A DNA stretch of 19,157 nucleotides from an uncultured Nitrososphaeraceae archaeon. GTDB lineage: Archaea; Thermoproteota; Nitrososphaeria; Nitrososphaerales; Nitrososphaeraceae. The notes below the pieces were generated by a model. That model was not told the DNA's origin and ran no database searches. It saw only the letters and a program-made list of their open reading frames with translations. The translations under genes were made by a program, and so were the position numbers. How positions within the stretch are numbered: position 1 is the stretch's first letter; each line of letters opens with the position of its first letter. The DNA lies in the NCBI GenBank assembly GCA_963765895.1, contig CAVXZB010000020.1:1-19157 (forward strand), written 5' to 3'. Shown one piece after another: positions 1,713 through 18,250 of the stretch.

Positions 1713-2346
1713 TATTTGTGATAATTTCTAACCCTTAATATGGTTTAAAAATATTATATATCAGCTCAATTTCCCAAACTATACCATCCATCACCATTTT
1801 CACGTAGTGCTCAGACAATAAACGACAATCTATTAAATCAAGTGACTATATCAGCATTTAAATATAATACTACAATGAGTAATAATACCAATATTTTCAA
1901 ATCTAACGCAACTAGTGATTCTCGTACTAGCAATTTCACACATTAAGTTGATAGGATAATTACTAGACGGTTTGATGTATAGATATTCTTACTTATTCTT
2001 ACTGTATCTGGACCTCGAATACTATTACTAAATGCTGTAATTACAGACACAGATGAATATTTAGCTGACGGACATGGGTTAAACTTCTGTTGTCAGGAAG
2101 TACCTCCTCCATTCGATTGTGATCATAGCAAGAATGGTGGAGGTAATCCTGATAGATAGAGATGTCAAAAAATGATACTCCGTTTAAATCCTGCTTTTAC
2201 ACCTGTTTTTAGCACGAATTTGATCTGTAGTGAGATCGTAGAGATATTTTATATATCATAGTCAGCAGTCAAAATGTGTGATTTTGTTAGTATAGCTAAC
2301 TTCATGTTGTTGGTTTTAAATAATATATTAACTAGTAACAATATAC

Positions 2347-3284
2347 ATGACTCTGGCTAACGGGAAAGATATTAAGTCAATGTTAATAAACAAAAAAACT
2401 ATTTCATTATTCTTTCAGTTGTCTTTGACGGTCCTGATTTTGTTAGGAGCTGGATTAGCACCTGCTCAAGCTTCAGCGCAATCAATTCCAAGTACTGGCA
2501 ATACATATTCCTTCTCAAACCCAAATTTATCTTCTCCTGTCAGACCTAGTCCAACTACATTTCATCCACCGTCAATATCTCATGAATTGTCTGCCGCTCA
2601 AAAAAGCGCATCAACAAACAAGCCATGCACACTTACACCATCGCTGATAGAACACGAAGGTACTCCACAACAGACAGAAGGTCCATACTTTGTTAATGGC
2701 ATGCCTAACCGATCTGATATAAATCAGATCTTTCTGATGGTTCAATACAGCAAGGCATCCCATTGCATCTAGTAATTCATGTTTATGGTATAAATAAAAA
2801 TGGTTCATGTAGTCCTCTCAAAGGAGCCAAAGTAGATATCTGGCAGGCTAATTCTCAGGGTATTTATTCTGATATTGCTGACCAAGGTAATATAGGAAAG
2901 AAATTCCTTAGGGGATATCAACTTACGGACAGTAGTGGGACCGTTAGATTTACAACGATATATCCAGGTTGGTATCAGGGCAGAGCCATTCATATACACG
3001 ACAAGGTTAGTACTTTTAACGGATCAGACAAAACTTTAGATTGGACATCACAGCTATACTTTGACAATTCTGCAAATGAACAGGTCCACAAGCAACTACC
3101 ATACAGCAAACATGGACCCCCTGACATGACGAATGAACAAGATGGTATTTATGCAGGACCATCAACTGATGGCCTATTTCAGAGCAATAGTGGGAATCAT
3201 TTAATGGTTGATTTAACTAAAGAAGGACAATCCTACCTTGGTACATTCAATATTGTATTAAAACACTACTCAACAAAAAGTTAA
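2347..3284 (+). CDS. Secreted intradiol ring-cleavage dioxygenase (protocatechuate 3,4-dioxygenase beta-like); one frameshift near 2720
   Basis: Signal peptide (..LLGAGLAPAQASA), S/P/T linker, then CTLTP...TEGPYF...RSDI/SDLSDGSIQQGIPLHLV...GAKVDIWQANSQGIYS...FLRGYQLTD...FTTIYPGWYQGRAIHIH. The Fe ligands Tyr, Tyr and His-x-His are present. Joins ORFs 2347-2772 and 2763-3284. Confidence 0.92.
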
Positions 3285-10015: not shown

Positions 10016-10445
10016 TCAACTGTTTTCACAATTTACTGTCTTTGTATCAACGCCTAGTTGAAAGTCAGTAATTGTGTCTGTGCCTGCACCGCAATTAATG
10101 TGATCTTTGTCTGGACCTCCAGTAAGGATATCATTACCATTACCTCCAGATATTTGGTCACTGCCGGAATTGTCTTGTGTAATGTCATTTCCTGCAAAGT
10201 CATTCAGCATGTCATTTCGTTGGCTCTCTTGCAATTCGATCGTCTCCATCACCGCCTTTGATGATGTCAGCTCCGTTGCATACATTTATTCCGTTATTTC
10301 CAGCTCGGCTATTAATAATGCCATTTCCGGGAGTTCTTATAAGAGTATCATTTCAGTTGGTACCCGTTATGCTCCTGACAGGACTGCTGTTACTAACACA
10401 AGAACTGTCAAGAGGCGGAATAGGGGCTGTGACTTGCCATGTAAA
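10016..10445 (-). pseudogene. Secreted RTX/hemolysin-type Ca-binding repeat protein, degraded
   Basis: Hydrophobic leader LLTVLVLVTAVLSGA, then /ITGTN*NDTLI...GADIIKGGDGDDR/...SGSDQISGGNGNDILTGGPDKDHINCGAGTDTITDFQLGVDTKTVNCE. GGxGxD nonapeptides, one stop and two frameshifts. Start uncertain. Confidence 0.8.
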
Positions 10446-10517: not shown

Positions 10518-12585
10518 CTATATCCCACCGTCTGATTGGAGGCCAGTTGAAGCAGCATAGTCAGGAAAAGAGGGAGTGTCGAAAGGTAATGCATCGAATC
10601 GAGTCTGACTACCCTGAGGCCACTGTCCTCGTTGGTAATTTATGTTGGTCCCGACCACTGAGTTGTCTGTTCCTATCCACAAGACGTCTATCTCGTTTGA
10701 AGGTCTCATCAAAGCGGCCAGACCACCGCTAGTTGAGGCAGGAGGTCCATATAGTGTGTAAGTGCCTCCCCATCCTTCGGAGGAGTTCCAAGTCATACCA
10801 TACCTACCACCGTTGTATATCCAATATACTTCCATGCTGGCTGGACTGCTCACTACAGCGGACCATACCACCTCTAATTGAGCCACCTGTATTTATTGCG
10901 CGCGCTCCCTTCCACTGTCTATCAGCAGATGAGTTCCAATAAACATATCCATTTTGTGCGTTTGGACATGCTCCACGTTGGCCTGATTCCGTTGGTCCTA
11001 TCCACCATACATCGATTTTGTTTATACCTCCTAACACAGAGGACACAGCAACAATACTATTGCCCCAAGCACTACCCGGTCCTGCTATTTGGTATGGGTT
11101 CCCATATTCGTTTGAATCAAATGCCCCCCCATCATGAAACCATTGACCCTTCACAGAACCATCTCCTTCTATCCACAAGACATCCACGGCGGTAGGTCCA
11201 TTCGGTACAGCGAGCCAGACCACTACTAGTTGAGCACCACCTCATTGGTCGTAATGCCTCCGATCTCCAGTTACCACGATCCCAGTACTCCCGGTAAACC
11301 TGACTATCACATCCAATGCAAAACATTTGTGGAGTATTACGGATGAATAAAGCAGCTATACCACCGCTAGTTGAGCTATATTTGACTGTACTAGGCATTG
11401 TGTTCCAAGTCAAATTCCCATCGACGTCGTAATAACCCACCACATGCTCCACAGAACTATCTGATCTTGTCCACCAGACATGTCGTTCATTCGGCTCTTA
11501 TAAATCGCAGTGATACTACCGCTAGGTACAGATGCGCTACCAGGTAAAGCTAATTGGTATGGTTTTCCCCAGCCTTTATTTACATACAACCTACCATTCA
11601 CAGAACCATTTGAGCCTATCCAGTAGACTTCCAAGTTGCCTGAACCTGTCGCTACAGCAGTGATAGCATGATTGCCAGGATCGTATGCGACCCCTATTTG
11701 TTGACTACTTAAAACGCTCGACAATGTCGGCGGGTTTCGTTCTTCGTCCCAAGGAAATATTTTAGCACTCCTATTCTGATACGGTATAACACCTCCACCG
11801 GTAGTGACGGTACCGTCACTAGGATAATAATCATCGTTGTCTGGTTTATTTATTTGCCATCGATCCCATATACGATCGACGTAGCAGTGATGAAGGAAAA
11901 ATACAGGATCGTTTGGAGAAGTCATGGGGAACATGGATCCACCAACCCAGAGATGGATATGGCCATGGACTTCCTCTAATGCTTTCCTAAAGCTTTTCTC
12001 AAGAATCATTATTCCAAGGGGAAGTGTCATAACTGGTTATATCTTTTAATGCATTACTTACCTGAGCCGAAGTCGGTAATCGGAATCCAGAACCAGCTAA
12101 ATCGCGTTTTAATAAACCAAGTGATATACCATCTTCACCAACAATTTGCCATCTCCGAAAGGGGCCCTCATCTACGATGAAATCATTACTGGGATATCCG
12201 GTGCCACCCATACAATCTTTATTCCAAACAGCCATATCCTTCGGTTCTTTGGAAGAATCCTCTGTCCAGTTCCAATAAGGCAATGTTATGCCAGTGCCAT
12301 TGTCTACCTGCTGTAACTCTTCTTCAAATCTTCGAATGAAATAACGGTGCCACGGGAAGAATGACGGACCTGTATGTGCAACGGCCCGATGTGGGACGTC
12401 TGGTGGAGTAACCTGGCCTACTGGAGTATCCTTATAAGCAGAGCAGCATGATGCCAGAGGACGAATTCGTCATATTTATTACTGGCATGACCACCATCTA
12501 TTTTACTTTTTAGTGCCCTTACTGCCGTAGTAAACCGTAGTAGCTCAGCTTTACTTAATGATGCTACGTTTCTTCTCCAGTTCAT
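10518..12585 (-). CDS. Tyrosinase (MelC2-like type-3 copper protein) fused to a C-terminal 7-repeat lectin-like beta-propeller, ~690 aa, five frameshifts
   Basis: MNWRRNVASLSKAELLRFTTAVRALK...YDEFVLWHH...AHTGPSFFPWHRYF (CuA)...LPYWNW...EEVHGHIHLWVGGSM...SPNDPVFFLHHCYVDRIWDRWQ (CuB). Then seven blades of type hxAh...hEVhWIGxDGSV. Frameshifts near 12440, 12003, 11482, 11212 and 10862. Confidence 0.92.
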
Positions 12586-13299: not shown

Positions 13300-13673
13300 G
13301 TAACTACGTGCATGATATTATATGCGTCTTGTGTGACAAATGTGGTATCGTCTTTTGCCGACAATCCCGCCTTGGATTTTCGTGGAATTGGTTCAGAGAC
13401 ACGTTTGACTCCTTTCCCATTAGGAACAGGTAAGACCATCGAGTCTGCTTTTCGTCGGCTCTCAGGGATGTAGTGTGTGTATATAGCATGATGATAATGA
13501 CAGGTTCGCCGGCGAGCAATCTCGCTTCAAAGAAACATACCGAATGTTTCAACGCCGGCCATGCGCCAGCCATCTATACTTTGGCCATGCATAGGCATGT
13601 GAATTCATCGTCGTTGTCGTTATTATTATAATATTATTATTATGATATCACTATTATTGTTGTTGCCGTGTAA

Positions 13674-15587
13674 TCAAATATAATCTAGCAATGTCTTTTG
13701 CTGAGCCAATTTCTTTATCCTTTCTACTCTATGTAAATTTGAGATTTTGATGCCTACTTTTCTATAGTTAATAGTAGTAGTATTATTATTATTAAAAAAA
13801 CTAAATCTATCCACCAATCCCTGTAAAACAGATGCGATGCTTTCTCTGTCACCACGAGAATTTGAAAATGACGTCTCTCTTGTCTCAATCGAAAAGTCAG
13901 ATCTAACTAGTTTGACTCCCACAGTTCTAAATTCATAGCCATGTTTTCTTACTCTTTCATAAACTTCATCGACAAGTTGATTTAGATGTTGTAGAATCTT
14001 TACTCTATCACTCGTAGCGCGATCTAGTGTTTGTTCTGTACTTATAGATATATTATCTTCCCGTGGCACAACAGGATCATCACTGTCTCTGCCATTAGCT
14101 ACTTGCCACATCCAAAGGCCATTCTTTTTGCCAAACCTGTCCTTTAATTTTTGAACATCATATTTTGCTAGCTGGCCTATGGTTTGAATTCCCATTTCAT
14201 CCTTTAGGACCTGCTGTGTCTTGGCACCTATTCCAGCTATCCTATATACTTCCAAATTCTCCAAGAATTTGTGCACTTGAGCAGGATAGATAACAGTAAG
14301 CCCGTCTGGTTTCTTGAAGTCGGAGGCAACCTTGGCAGCTGACTTTGTAGGAGCTACGCCAATTGATGACAAAAGCCCTCCGCATTGTTGCCTGATTGCA
14401 TCTTTGATTGTGGCGGCATATTCCTCCACATTATTTGCGCCATCGGCAGTTATTTTCTTTGTACAATCCAGATATGCTTCGTCTATGCTGGCCTGCTCTA
14501 ATACATCTGCATACTCTTCTATCAGATTCATGACCTTCTCGGATACTCTGTTGATAATAGGATTTGTTTACAGGATTTAAAATCAGTTGGGGACATAATC
14601 GCTTGGCAGCAAAAAGGGAGATAGCTGACCTGACACCATATTTCCTAGCTTCATAAGAACATGAGGCCACAGCACCTCTGATTATCTTACCTTTGGTTTC
14701 GTCAGTCATAATCACAGCATGCGGTTTCCCCTTTAATGTCGGATCTCTTAGCTCCTCACAAGACGGAAGAAAGAATTAAGGTCTACATGCATTATTACCT
14801 TGCCAATCCACTGGCTATGGCCGTATGTTTTCTCAGGTAAACCTAATAATTTTAATGTCTGATTTGCTTTAGCAGGATTACTAACAACTACTACTACAAA
14901 GCCAATGCCCTCTTCTTCCTCACTGTATCTTCCTCCTCCTCCGCTGCTCTGGTGTTCCACTCGCTAACTTTTCCCTTTGCTTTCTCTATCCATGTCTCTT
15001 CATTACCATTAATCCTAAGGTACAGGAAATCGGCTGTCACAGCTGCATATGAATATCGGCTACTAAAATCAGACCAAACCACAGCCGCTTTGTGCTTATT
15101 TAATAGATTATATGTTAAATCTTGAAACCACGATGTGTGATTGAATTCCAATGCAACTGAATAGCCATGGTAAGTACAAGTATCCTAAGATATCATCAAG
15201 CCATTCTCTCCCGCCATTGCCTAGGGTTAGTTTACTTGGCGGTGGCGACTCTATAATCACAGCAAGAATCTTCTCCTCTAATGGTGCAAGCTCCTCTAGG
15301 AAGTTACCAACTTTGTACGTATCCTCTATGATGTACCTGGGTAGTTTCACGGTAAAGCGAAAATTGTGAGGGGTATTTTTTGCCCACCTTTTGAAAAGCA
15401 GTCTGTCATAAAGTTTGTTGTCATTATCATTCGAATTTCCGCCTCCTCTACTACCCAAATCTAACTCCACGAGATCAAATACCTTGGAGTAATACGCGAG
15501 GTAGTCATTAGGATCTAAGGTGGGCGGATAGAATTCTTCTGACCATCTCTCATCTCTCCATCCCCTACAGCCAACATAATATTTCAA
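13674..15587 (-). CDS. dinB: Y-family DNA polymerase IV with an N-terminal DUF72 domain (apparent fusion, ~637 aa), four frameshifts
   Basis: DUF72 part: YVGCRGW, FYP, YLAYYSKVFDLVE, WAKNTPHNFRFTVKLP, EFNHTSW, TADFLYLRING. Linker ...NPAKANQTLKLLGLPEKTYGHSQWIG runs in frame into the PolY motifs VIMHVDLNSFF/PSCEELRDP...VASCSYEARKYGV...SIDEAYLD...AKVASDFKKPDG...GIGAKT, little finger, and C-terminal PIP box QKTLLDYI. Frameshifts near 15185, ~14950, 14765 and 14547. Confidence 0.88.
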
Positions 15588-15752
15588 ATTTTTTTCCCAA
15601 CTACCTCTGCTATTGTCTACTACCTTTTCACAGACAATATGTTTCCGATAATCATAATAATAAAAAATTGCATAAGCTAAAAAATATTGGCTTATTGTAA
15701 ATTAAAAATTTCAAAACGCTTAACATAATGCTTACGATAGACAGGGTCTACT

Positions 15753-15842
15753 ATGGTTACGTAACAGCCTGATGAGTTTATGTCGCTACAACGAAACCAT
15801 CTCCAATCAGGAGAAAAACAACCCTGACGGCTGTGGTATGCT
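15753..15842 (+). ncRNA. Hammerhead-ribozyme-like core (imperfect stem I)
   Basis: CTGATGA (15769-75), stem II GTT...AAC, GAAA (15793-96). ACCAT can pair with upstream ATGGT-T (15753-58) or downstream GTGGT-A (15833-38). Stem I is non-canonical in both folds. Confidence 0.35.
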
Positions 15843-16097
15843 TAATTATATCGCTAGTGATTTGCGCACGAGATTACCAGAAAAATCAGCCGTCAGGGAC
15901 GTCATGGTATCCATAGTGCTTTATTGATATACTATTCGTATTATTGTGGGTGTATAATAATATCTTTAGTTAACCTATTTTATTTAATTCGAATTAATAT
16001 ATACTATGGTTACTATGGATGCCCTGACGGATACAATATCAATAGTGATCTGAGCGTGAAATATTATGAAACCACTAGTAAATCTAATTCGTCAGGG
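15822..16097. repeat. Nested inverted-repeat array: two CCCTGACG...CGTCAGGG units flanking an AT-rich spacer
   Basis: CCCTGACGGCTG (15822-33) and CAGCCGTCAGGG (15887-98) form a perfect 12-bp IR. CCCTGACG (16022-29) pairs with CGTCAGGG (16090-97). 15890-15918 matches the reverse complement of 16002-16030 at 22/29. Confidence 0.9.
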
Positions 16098-16849: not shown

Positions 16850-17190
16850 CTTATGTTATTATCGATGCAATAAATCAGTTACAGAGTCAAAATAGTATAA
16901 AAATGGATTAATAGTAGTGATGATTAGACAACTCAGATTATTTGGAATATATTAATCTCTCTAGTTCTCTAGTTGCTATTTGCATCAATTGAATATTTAT
17001 TTAGAACCCTCTTCCCAGTACTCAAAGGCTCAGATTTCATATGCCTCATTAATACATTTAACAAAAAGTCACTTTTGCAATGGTACTCCAAATTTTGTAA
17101 TTAGTGAAGCAGAAAAATTGCTGATTAGGTTGGTCAATCTCTTATATCATATGTTGTATACGCATACCGTATAACAAAGAGAGGTGAATT

Positions 17191-18250
17191 TTGGAAAAAA
17201 ATGACGAACAAAATTTAAAGATATTTCGCGAAAGTGAAAAAAACAATATAATCGATGGCACAAGAAGTGACGGTAAGAAGAAGGAGAAGTATAATAGTAA
17301 GGAACAAGCGTTTGATGTAGCAATAATAGGCGGCGGGTTCGCAGGGCTATCCTCAGCATTATTGCTTGGCAGATATATCAGACCTACGGTGGTTTTTGAT
17401 AGTGGGAATACAAGAAACTCTATGACCAGACAAGTCCATGGTTATTTAGGGTATGAAAACGTCTGTCCGAACAGCTTATTAAGAAAACTCGGAAAGATGT
17501 ATTGCAGTATAGATCGATAAAGATAATCAACGAGAAAGTTGAAAAGGTTAAGAAATACAAGGATATTTTTTTATTAACTACAGACAAAAGGATTACTTCT
17601 ATTAAGTGCAGATATGTTGTAATAGCAACAGGAATTGAAGATATAAAGCCAAGTATTAAAAATTTTAGAAAGTTCGATGGAAATGGAGCATGGCATTGCC
17701 CTCATTGTGATGGATTCCAAAGCGAAGGGACAAAGCTCATCATTATTTCGTCTGGTGATAATAGCATAAATTATGCAAAAGAATTCCTGGGATGGACTGA
17801 GAATATTACGCTTTTTATAAATGATAATTATAAGATGAAACAAGAAGAATTAGATGATGCCAAGAAATTAAAGATCAAGATAACAAAATGATATACCTAT
17901 AGAAATTACTGCAAATAAAAAAGGATTTCTCACAGGAATTATATGTAAAAGTGGGAGACTATATCCCGGAGATGTGATATTCTATAATATTGGATACAAA
18001 GTTAGAAATCAGATTGCAAGGCAAATTGGATGCGAAGTAGATGAGCATGGGTTTGTCAAAGCGAATAACATGCAGCAAACCACAGTTCCTAACGTTTATG
18101 CAGTAGGAGATATAGCTACGATAGACACTATGTAGTCCTAGCAGAGCCAGTGGAGCACTTGCTTCTATATCGATTTACGAAACCCTTCTAAGAGATGCCA
18201 TCAAGAGAAGAAGATCTGGAACATCTAAATCAACCATTAACACAACGTGA
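17191..18250 (+). CDS. Thioredoxin-reductase-like NAD(P)/FAD-dependent oxidoreductase (CPHC type), four frameshifts
   Basis: FDVAIIGGGFAGLSSAL (FAD-binding), VHGYLG, VVIATG, HCPHCDG (redox CxxC), QQTTVPNVYAVGDI, then /DRHYVVLA/ASGALASISIYETLL. Frameshifts near 17470, 17886, 18120 and 18144. Confidence 0.9.

Follow-up and report, generated by a model that had tools for sequence, protein, structure and literature searches.

A DUF72 TIM barrel fused to a Y-family DNA polymerase in Nitrososphaeraceae archaea

The window analysed here, the whole of a 19,157-nucleotide stretch from an uncultured Nitrososphaeraceae archaeon, carries on its minus strand a gene (13674..15587) that joins a DUF72-like TIM barrel to a Y-family DNA polymerase. 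Comparison with orthologues gives a product of ~637 aa when four 1-nt indels are allowed for, and the limits of the gene are exact, with a TTG start at 15585-15587 and a stop at 13674-13676. No uninterrupted reading frame for this protein is present in the window; the four indels leave five pieces in the list of ORFs on this strand, of 159 aa (15587-15108), 85 aa (15151-14894), 70 aa (14960-14748), 94 aa (14715-14431) and 285 aa (14531-13674). The remodelled barrel occupies three frame pieces (14835..15587, from Pfam PF01904 and an orthologue domain model) and is followed on the same strand by a conserved 12-residue linker, EKTYGHSQWIGK (14799..14834; consensus ..RKYGH.QWIGK), and by a DinB/Dpo4-type polymerase (13674..14798) built of IMS palm and fingers, HhH thumb and IMS_C little finger. 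Among the window pieces, Pfam detects DUF72 in two segments (1-106, E 1.6e-14, 55 bits; 112-187, E 1.4e-11, 45.3 bits; PF01904 gathering cut-off 25.3 bits), IMS in two segments (9-78, E 1.2e-18, and 74-148; 67.9 and 54.3 bits, cut-off 23.2 bits), HhH, and IMS_C (68.3 bits, E 9e-19; cut-off 20.7 bits), and the junction piece taken alone matches no Pfam family.

The 70-aa junction piece contains GIGFVVVVVSNPAKANQTLKLLGLPEKTYGHSQWIGKVIMHVDLNSFF and reads through from the DUF72 C-terminus to polymerase motif I with no intervening stop, as the original prediction had described. It had further held that the junction needs no frameshift correction, in agreement with the lack of any indel at 14768-14929 relative to two intact orthologues. 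The catalytic Asp of motif I (HVDLNSFF; 14781..14783, minus strand) corresponds to D283, which is invariant in 105 fusion proteins, as are the catalytic D383 and E384 of the SIDE motif (14478..14489, minus strand). At the C-terminus, the PIP-like tail QKTLLDYI (13677..13700, minus strand) conforms to a Qxx[ILM]xx[FY]-type motif, and in the same 105 proteins its Q642 is invariant and its Y648 at least 90% conserved. The catalytic Asp, the SIDE residues and the PIP box noted earlier are all present in the window at the sequence level. The interval 13674-15587 is almost certainly a single gene for a real DUF72–IMS/HhH/IMS_C fusion protein.

The frameshifts that the original prediction had implied were placed, at approximate positions, by DNA alignment to the two intact orthologues, against which all other indels are multiples of three. 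Two are extra bases on the minus strand, at 15183 (missing from the contigs of all three runs that cover the site) and at 14546 (absent from 4/4 runs). The other two are missing bases on this strand, one (net –1) in a GGA/GAG-rich stretch at 14948..14951, where each of four runs shows a net +1, and one at 14767 inside motif I (..NSFF|PSCEEL), where 4/4 runs add a base. The stop at 14894, earlier proposed as a possible true end of the DUF72 part, falls out of frame once the indel at 14948-14951 is allowed for. Because contigs from these four public runs restore the frame at every site covered and other genes on the contig (Tyrosinase and Pyr_redox_2) are likewise split, assembly errors most likely account for the breaks. 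The run contigs are 95-99% alike and come from close relatives or strains whose identity with the source genome is unproven; one run, possibly the source sample, differs at 31 letters over ~1.8 kb. Frames of at least 150 aa cover only 0.16 of the contig, compared with ~0.5-0.7 on large contigs, a long-ORF cover among the lowest in the assembly. In the synteny comparison, only 13649-15935 of the window aligns to the two closest relatives. With a frame-breaking indel roughly every 0.5 kb along this 1.9-kb gene, the contig needs polishing, and the four breaks are very probably artefacts of an error-rich contig rather than gene decay.

A true pseudogene in the source organism, with real frameshifts and a standalone PolY on contig C53 having taken over, is by comparison improbable. 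Four frame-breaking indels within 1.9 kb and, on C53, an intact fusion-type PolY paralogue of 385 aa are consistent with decay, the DUF72 part has been lost at least twice within the family, and the corrected contigs derive from 95-99% alike DNA that is not provably the source strain. However, no in-frame stop or nonsense substitution is found once the indels are ignored, and dN/dS against orthologue L005 is 0.24 and 0.21; the same kind of break affects further genes of this contig, its long-ORF cover is as low as stated above, and many DUF72 copies elsewhere in the source genome are also fragmented. That two adjacent genes had their stop and start erased by sequencing error, as an error-rich assembly might suggest, is scarcely credible and was rejected on the intact orthologue frames, their domain content, the database fusions and the indel-free junction, given that dozens of independent assemblies, six single-contig genomes among them, hold one open frame across the junction and that the only canonical start between the DUF72 end and motif I is a Met three residues before the catalytic Asp.

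The fusion is widespread in the family. With the N-terminal DUF72 piece as query, single open frames of 605-745 aa were found in at least 45 of 120 family genomes (150 of 431 matches listed), which bears out both the single polypeptide proposed earlier and the expectation that relatives would hold DUF72 + IMS + IMS_C proteins. Orthologue L005, 90% identical at the amino acid level over the DUF72 piece, is a single 649-aa open frame, and Pfam finds DUF72, IMS, HhH and IMS_C in all seven frames tested, the same set also occurring in the genomes G003, G037 and G001. PF01904 together with PF00817 is carried by 119 of the 120 best database proteins, and PolY is the partner of this DUF72 clade in 119 of 120 listed (162 matches, proteins of 356-1136 aa). 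Outside the family, the listed PolY matches cover the polymerase part only, in frames of 356-452 aa; one such family (f2) has a match in 112/114 genomes, and the other families of the class with the gene have standalone polymerases. In the phylogeny, 31 fused and three standalone PolY domains of the family form one clade (support 100/100), and a grouping of the fused rows alone is rejected (p-AU 0.00027). A single fusion event lies at the base of the Nitrososphaeraceae; the family's three standalone copies go back to secondary loss and still carry the W.GK part of the linker. Both halves are under purifying selection, with a dN/dS of 0.14-0.43 for the fused DUF72 in seven pairs, and the TTG start is conserved among fusion genes. 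Evidence of expression consists of contigs from one RNA library only, which possibly contains DNA. Around eight loci (6-kb flanks, 32 flanking ORFs, Pfam), no recurrent repair gene lies beside the fusion, and the only repeated neighbours are a cyclophilin with a TetR gene (two loci, one genus) and a YgjP-like gene (two loci, another genus). No paper describing a DUF72–PolY fusion was found among open-access articles.

The polymerase half belongs to the DinB/Dpo4 (Pol IV) branch of the Y family by its profiles, catalytic carboxylates and fold. IMS and IMS_C are matched by Pfam in 7/7 orthologues, the NCBIfam Pol IV profile scores 273 against a cut-off of 256, and the orthologue model superposes on Dbh, Dpo4 and DinB chains with E values of 1e-27 to 1e-33, a target TM score of ~0.8 and 28-35% identity. 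Like these enzymes, the fusion combines IMS, HhH and IMS_C with the catalytic D and D-E, an aromatic residue at the steric-gate position and a C-terminal clamp-binding tail, and its polymerase half would carry out PCNA-dependent lesion bypass. It differs from them in an N-terminal DUF72 TIM barrel of ~260 aa and the conserved linker; none of the matches is a solved or described Pol IV with such a barrel. Furthermore, whereas classic Pol IV members have an Asp second after the motif I Asp, the fusion has an Asn at this position (VDLN).

DUF72 is a large bacterial and archaeal family for which three structures have been solved and no function has been assigned. As modelled for the orthologue (pLDDT 90.2), the fused domain is a DUF72 TIM barrel closest to solved DUF72 structures: the best match is 1VPQ (Z 20.8, rmsd 2.4 over 213 residues), followed by 1VPY (Z 20.0), while all other folds score at most 12.3. 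The Foldseek match to the solved DUF72 structures has an E of 8e-12. The relationship is also detected by sequence (E 4e-13 to 1VPQ), and the L005 domain has a Pfam score of 100.7 bits. The fused domain shares the PF01904 match and the eight-stranded barrel with TM1631 (1VPQ), EF0366 (1VPY, 1ZTV) and E. coli YecE. Structural modelling, suggested earlier, recovers both the barrel and the polymerase folds but leaves the interdomain arrangement undefined (pTM 0.49 for the full-length model), and a predicted complex of PolY 271-649 with DUF72 12-266, run without controls (score 0.08, mark 0.32), carries no weight either way on docking of the two halves. The kinship with UVDE and AP endonucleases originally assumed is so far supported only at the level of the TIM-barrel superfamily, with Endo IV chains (5zhz, Z 11.7; 3aam, Z 11.2) on a plateau shared with sugar isomerases and epimerases and UVDE absent among the 50 structural matches listed.

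The obvious differences between the fused domain and canonical DUF72 proteins occur in conserved residues. As hallmarks we took the 17 polar or aromatic positions that reach 85% conservation or more among 73 canonical members of the family. Across 121 fused domains, 8/17 are kept and 9/17 replaced or deleted. Those lost are the loop Tyr, T-H, Q, R, H, Y and N-N, counting two near-invariant His and the invariant Arg and Gln. A low-complexity insert stands in place of the T-F/Y-Y loop, and the Y.Y.Y segment has been lost. The fused domain retains E54, K94, E160, H163, D186 (74%) and R204 at the C-terminal strand ends of the barrel, and R140, W142, C150, Y152 and H153 are new invariants, with Y155 also among the invariant surface-type residues gained. 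A further difference is that the fused domain is not standalone, which is the norm for DUF72, as had been stated beforehand; in eleven canonical DUF72 proteins of 377-402 aa, Pfam detects no domain besides DUF72, and a 330-aa one carries a zinc ribbon.

The sister of the fused domain is a Nitrososphaeraceae subfamily of standalone DUF72 proteins ('SWFQDLAY' type, 283-300 aa), with members in the source genome on contigs C38 and C47. Fused and sister rows together split from 31 canonical rows (support 99), and the two groups share the derived residues G139, Q168, D169, Y172, W184 and S185. By comparison with the fused domain, the sister proteins are unfused, keep 15/17 hallmarks and bear a tail of their own, a C-terminal KQxx[ILM]xDF in 22/22. 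Strict PIP-like motifs are found in 6/2948 long frames of the source genome, and five of the six are DUF72 or PolY. As for the linker, we discarded its reading as a relic of the sister-group PIP tail, because no Qxx[ILM] pattern occurs in the linker and W274 pairs with the tail Phe only where the alignment ends and the match is forced. The fusion had been put forward as a Rosetta-stone clue to DUF72 function; the conserved fusion itself is real, but the clue is weaker than it looks with 9/17 hallmarks replaced. The better guide to the role of DUF72 is the sister subfamily, with its 15/17 hallmarks and its own PIP-like tail. One lineage offers three natural forms of DUF72 for comparison, namely canonical, clamp-tagged, and fused and remodelled.

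We propose, with moderate confidence, a clamp-linked fusion with a remodelled DUF72 accessory domain, in a gene whose frameshifts are contig errors. A clamp-tagged polymerase would have gained a DUF72 of the clamp-tagged subfamily at its N-terminus, merging two PCNA clients into one. The DUF72 half would have dropped the canonical DUF72 chemistry and, by analogy, may assist the polymerase in cis as an accessory domain that binds DNA or lesions or otherwise selects substrates. That loss of the hallmarks means loss of activity is itself an inference from sequence conservation, and the retained charged residues together with the new invariant Cys, His and Tyr could form a re-specialised active site. 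We regard the choice of a non-canonical accessory over a canonical nuclease for the DUF72 half as about an even call. Of the original proposal, one polypeptide coupling lesion recognition or processing to bypass synthesis, the clamp-linked fusion stands, while the fused barrel is probably not a canonical DUF72 enzyme.

The foremost alternative is that the fused DUF72 is an active UVDE- or Endo IV-like enzyme that recognizes or nicks lesions and hands the product in cis to the polymerase. This would fit the broad superfamily shared with Endo IV, the charged residues at the strand ends with the new invariant C150/Y152/H153, and the purifying selection on the domain. For Tm1631, a purely computational study predicted an Endo IV-like endonuclease whose Tyr-bearing loop is proposed to probe DNA (PMC3828134), and PolB2 translesion ('mutasome') operons are reported to be enriched in neighbouring DUF72 genes (PMC11791011). 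However, the loop Tyr that the Tm1631 model inserts into DNA is among the 9/17 hallmarks replaced, so nicking by a canonical DUF72 active site, as first envisaged, is doubtful. In addition, the Endo IV match is inseparable from sugar isomerases of equal Z, and the open-access articles found report no nuclease or other biochemical activity for any DUF72 protein. On balance, we consider this alternative unlikely.

A re-specialised barrel is quite unlikely; in it, the new invariant Cys/His/Tyr/Arg/Trp would join the retained Glu/Lys/Glu/Asp/Arg in a new active site and process a blocking lesion or DNA end (such as an AP site, a 3' block or a 5'-dRP) on the PCNA ring of the polymerase. If correct, it would represent a single-polypeptide archaeal 'process-and-fill' repair enzyme and open the large DUF72 family to biochemistry for the first time. 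Pol beta, which combines a lyase and a polymerase, and bacterial LigD are functional analogues of such an enzyme.

A non-DNA module, kept only for control of the polymerase through protein docking, regulation or stabilization, is very unlikely. The loss of canonical hallmarks and the gain of the surface-type invariants R140, W142, Y152, H153 and Y155 are compatible with it, and the conserved TTG start suggests low, controlled expression. However, clamp-binding tails on its nearest relatives tie the lineage to DNA, and clamp-like C-terminal motifs end 16/87 canonical DUF72 representatives compared with 41/2948 background frames.

Returning to the clamp-linked accessory domain, the N-terminal extension of the catalytic core recalls eukaryotic Y-family polymerases, in which modules such as the BRCT domain of Rev1 and the N-clasp of Pol kappa change how DNA or partners are bound. 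These modules have folds unrelated to DUF72, and no TIM barrel is known as an accessory domain of eukaryotic Y-family polymerases. The PolB2 operons (PMC11791011) tie DUF72 to a translesion polymerase by separate genomic evidence; there DUF72 is a neighbouring gene and the polymerase belongs to the B family, while here the Y-family fusion is covalent and has no conserved neighbours. Together with the tailed sister subfamily and this operon enrichment, the fusion points to DUF72 acting on DNA at the sliding clamp in damage tolerance, and its conservation and selection across the whole family make it good comparative evidence on the role of DUF72.

In databases, the fusion proteins bear the name "DNA polymerase IV", and this plain annotation by pipelines hides the extra domain.

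The DUF72–PolY gene is read on the minus strand of the window between positions 15587 and 13674, where five ORF pieces in three frames follow one another: first the N-terminal and then the middle part of DUF72, next one of 70 aa, and finally two more from the polymerase. Within the 70-aa piece the DUF72 C-terminus runs stop-free into polymerase motif I (…FVVVVVSNPAKANQTLKLLGLPEKTYGHSQWIGKVIMHVDLNSFF). This junction piece alone matched no Pfam family; the pieces together match DUF72 (profile positions 1–106 and 112–187), IMS (9–78 and 74–148), HhH and IMS_C. ORF pieces and Pfam matches thus agree with the gene description and coordinates of the original prediction. Alignment of the window DNA to two intact orthologues, L005 (649 aa, in a congeneric genome) and L006, revealed zero indels at 14768–14929, and the junction indeed needs no frameshift correction, as had been claimed.

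The DUF72–PolY fusion is real. When the DUF72 N-terminal piece was searched against 120 Nitrososphaeraceae genomes, at least 45 of them, single-contig genomes included, gave a match within one open frame of 605–745 aa, a lower bound because it derives from the best 150 of 431 matches; DUF72 and PolY therefore form one polypeptide, as originally proposed. These 45 genomes represent 11 of the 18 genera sampled. The fusion was also found in genera g3 and g12 by Pfam analysis of the frames, and genus g5 contributes a 770-aa frame with similarity matches to both DUF72 and PolY. Of 29 fetched loci, 27 contain a frame of 400 aa or more with the SIDE motif, and the remaining two stop at contig ends. 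Full-length relatives with the predicted architecture were recovered in both searches: DUF72, IMS, HhH and IMS_C occur together in all seven frames scanned with Pfam, and PF01904 and PF00817 are both present on 119 of the best 120 matches to the 649-aa orthologue in a collection of 5.8 billion proteins. The unpublished genomes G035 and G076 (120-genome search) and G250 (a 200-genome search) enter denominators and tallies only.

Precomputed Pfam hits already reveal the architecture in public protein collections, where JGI and NCBI call these proteins DNA polymerase IV and two clusters are labelled Nitrososphaeraceae archaeon. The NCBIfam Pol IV model is passed (273 bits against a cut-off of 256), and therefore the extra DUF72 domain goes unnamed. 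The literature searched yielded no published description of a DUF72–PolY fusion or of any DUF72 activity. The protein is a Y-family polymerase bearing a previously undescribed accessory domain.

The catalytic Asp of motif I and the Asp-Glu of SIDE are invariant in 105 fusion proteins, as is Q642 of the PIP-like tail, and at least 90% of them retain the tail aromatic residue Y648, bearing out the expectation that PolY retains its catalytic residues and PIP box. Modelled in full length (pLDDT 83.8, pTM 0.49), the orthologue matches Dbh, Dpo4 and bacterial DinB chains with a TM of about 0.8 at 28–35% identity. PolY of the class carries PIP-like tails in general, whether fused or standalone. Judged from these features, the polymerase half has the look of a working Pol IV-type translesion polymerase that would be recruited by PCNA.

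The model of the DUF72 domain (87 aligned sequences; pLDDT 90.2, pTM 0.88) is an eight-stranded beta/alpha barrel. Among solved structures it lies closest to the DUF72 proteins 1VPQ (Z 20.8, with 213 residues at rmsd 2.4 Å) and 1VPY (Z 20.0). Next comes a plateau of xylose-isomerase-like barrels at Z of at most 12. The originally suggested kinship to UV-damage and AP endonucleases is seen only at the level of the TIM-barrel superfamily: Endo IV is recovered (Z 11.7 and 11.2) but stands amid sugar epimerases, and UVDE is absent from the best 50 structures.

A set of 121 fused domains was compared with two others: 73 full-length representatives of canonical DUF72 clusters, retrieved with the canonical copy of the window's own genome, and 22 'SWFQDLAY'-subtype standalone proteins, of which 20 come from relatives and 2 from the window's genome. 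Hallmarks were defined as the 17 polar or aromatic positions at least 85% conserved in the 73 canonical proteins. The standalone subtype keeps 15 of the 17, and the fused domain eight (W28, Y33, Y46, E54, K94, E160, W166 and R204). The losses include the Gln and the Arg of E-F-R (each 73/73 in canonical DUF72), the T-H pair (His in 72/73), the His of R-x-H-G (66/73), the Asn-Asn pair and the Tyr of the T-F/Y-Y loop, and the Y.Y.Y segment is deleted. The T-F/Y-Y loop is the Tyr47/Tyr48 loop put into DNA in the Tm1631–DNA model (PMC3828134). In its place, the loop after barrel strand 2 (L005 58–75) is of low complexity and rich in G, S and N; it is enlarged by long Q/N-rich inserts in genus g2 forms (L056 and L059), whose proteins reach 690–745 aa. 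The fused domain is not decaying, with dN/dS of 0.14–0.43 compared with 0.08–0.21 for the polymerase part (7 pairs computable out of 12).

In a quick tree built from 65 DUF72 domains, one branch (support 99) separates 31 canonical rows from the fused domains and the standalone subtype, which form groups of 12 rows (support 100) and 22 rows (support 98), respectively. The subtype, the sister group to the fused domain (283–300 aa, many genera; loci L083–L102, G000:C38:28522–32211 (L036) and G000:C47:89028–92717 (L037), G000 being the window's genome), carries the PIP-like tail KQxx[ILM]xDF(x) in 22 of 22 proteins, a tail that the canonical copy of G000 lacks. Among 2948 stop-ended G000 frames of at least 150 aa, 6 show a strict version of the motif (Q..[ILM].D[FY] within the final 12 residues), namely three DUF72, two PolY and one radical-SAM protein. 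The latter, 328 aa long (G000:C56:27978–28961, minus strand; L103:79–1062), ends in …DDQLTLIDYI, has a Pfam Radical_SAM match and resembles the PA0069/Rv2578c families below NCBIfam cut-offs. Looser clamp-type patterns occur in 16 of 87 canonical DUF72 representatives versus 41 of 2948 background frames, a crude comparison. DUF72 is expanded in this lineage: G000 holds 29 PF01904 matches, many of them fragments, and at least three intact standalone copies (canonical on C13; clamp-tagged on C38 and C47). The tails of the sister subtype and of PolY together indicate that two predicted PCNA clients were merged into one protein, the product keeping one tail, which agrees with the enrichment of DUF72 genes beside PolB2 translesion operons reported in PMC11791011. 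The 'SWFQDLAY' subfamily is well suited to a first biochemical study of DUF72.

The barrel of the fusion is conserved but remodelled, and derives from a clamp-tagged DUF72 lineage. In the working model that we favor, the C-terminal tail would tether the protein to PCNA, the polymerase half would carry out bypass synthesis, and the barrel, with about half of the family hallmarks lost, would serve in cis as an accessory domain that selects DNA, lesions or substrates, and not through canonical DUF72 chemistry. The main alternative is that the fused barrel holds a re-specialised active site; R140, W142, C150, Y152, H153, G154 and Y155 are invariants peculiar to the fused domain. For the proposed coupling of lesion recognition or processing to PCNA-dependent bypass, the single polypeptide, intact polymerase core and clamp tail speak in favor, whereas canonical processing chemistry is disfavored with 8 of 17 hallmarks kept.

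The whole fusion was also used to query 200 genomes from across the class. In families other than the window's own, the listed matches (119 others aside) span the polymerase part alone (query about 261–645) in frames of 356–452 aa; family f2, for instance, has a match in 112 of its 114 genomes, and 5 of 13 other families gave zero matches. A careful maximum-likelihood tree was built from 50 PolY domains, leaving out L012, L024 and L030 (cut by locus ends), the re-fetches L060 and L061 and the near-duplicate L026. It places all 31 fused rows and three standalone family rows (G000:C53, G026 and G012) in one clade (100/100), with standalone PolY of three other families as its sister. A topology with the fused rows alone together, a group named after the tree was seen, is rejected (p-AU 0.00027). 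The DUF72 part was therefore gained once and has since been lost at least twice. The G000 copy (G000:C53:1056–2213; L002) is an intact standalone PolY of 385 aa, 57% identical to the window polymerase part, with the start …QWIGKIIFHIDLNSFY. Nested in the fusion clade and retaining the QWIGK pre-motif, this copy is secondary, the DUF72 part having been lost from it or never acquired. In genus g8, PolY of the fusion clade occurs in 454–475-aa frames that show no DUF72 match, and genus g4 has only a distant PolY (29–31% identity). A second, older PolY lineage, which family f2 also has, is an extra copy in G014 and G028.

The frame breaks of the window copy are very probably assembly indel errors. 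Against L005 and L006 there are exactly four, all remaining length differences being multiples of three: on the minus strand, +1 near 15183 (base omitted by 3/3 covering runs), net −1 at 14948–14951 (net +1 in 4/4 runs), −1 at 14767 (base inserted by 4/4) and +1 at 14546 (base omitted by 4/4). Among the 12 of 18 indel rows listed, every public run covering a site restores the frame; the four runs comprise two labelled as soil or rhizosphere DNA, a third with no label and a metatranscriptome library from rhizosphere, which has no cover at 15183. A recent pseudogene in the window's strain is improbable: the run contigs, 95–99% alike to the window, come from relatives or strains and are not proof for its own strain, but the gene has no in-frame stop once the four indels are ignored, comparison with L005 gives a dN/dS of 0.24 for the DUF72 part and 0.21 for the polymerase part, and genes elsewhere on the contig, C20, are split likewise. 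These are a tyrosinase (11413–12469, minus strand, two frames) and a Pyr_redox_2 oxidoreductase (17188–18132, plus strand, three pieces); a dioxygenase (2332–3281, plus strand, profile partly matched) is also frameshift-split. The longest ORF across the 19-kb contig is 285 aa, frames of at least 150 aa cover 0.16 of it versus roughly 0.5–0.7 of large contigs, and many DUF72 copies elsewhere in G000 are likewise fragmented. The assembly (4.9 Mb, 88 contigs, 88% complete) has the window as the entire contig C20, which needs polishing; the window copy contributes a sequencing-quality caveat, not new biology.

The TTG start (15585–15587) recurs in all 24 orthologue locus records examined, two of them re-fetches and three with the TTG one codon upstream, which suggests low or controlled translation initiation. 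Flanking ORFs of the orthologue loci revealed no conserved operon partners. Window 13649–15935 is similar at the DNA level to the two closest genomes (G033:C325 and G015:C10) only over the gene and about 350 bp upstream, and the flanks are unrelated, so the gene's surroundings differ even between members of one genus. An ORF fragment at 10019–10285 (minus strand) carries RTX calcium-binding nonapeptide repeats (HemolysinCabind, E 2e-7), and L060 has a similar repeat protein close to the fusion gene.
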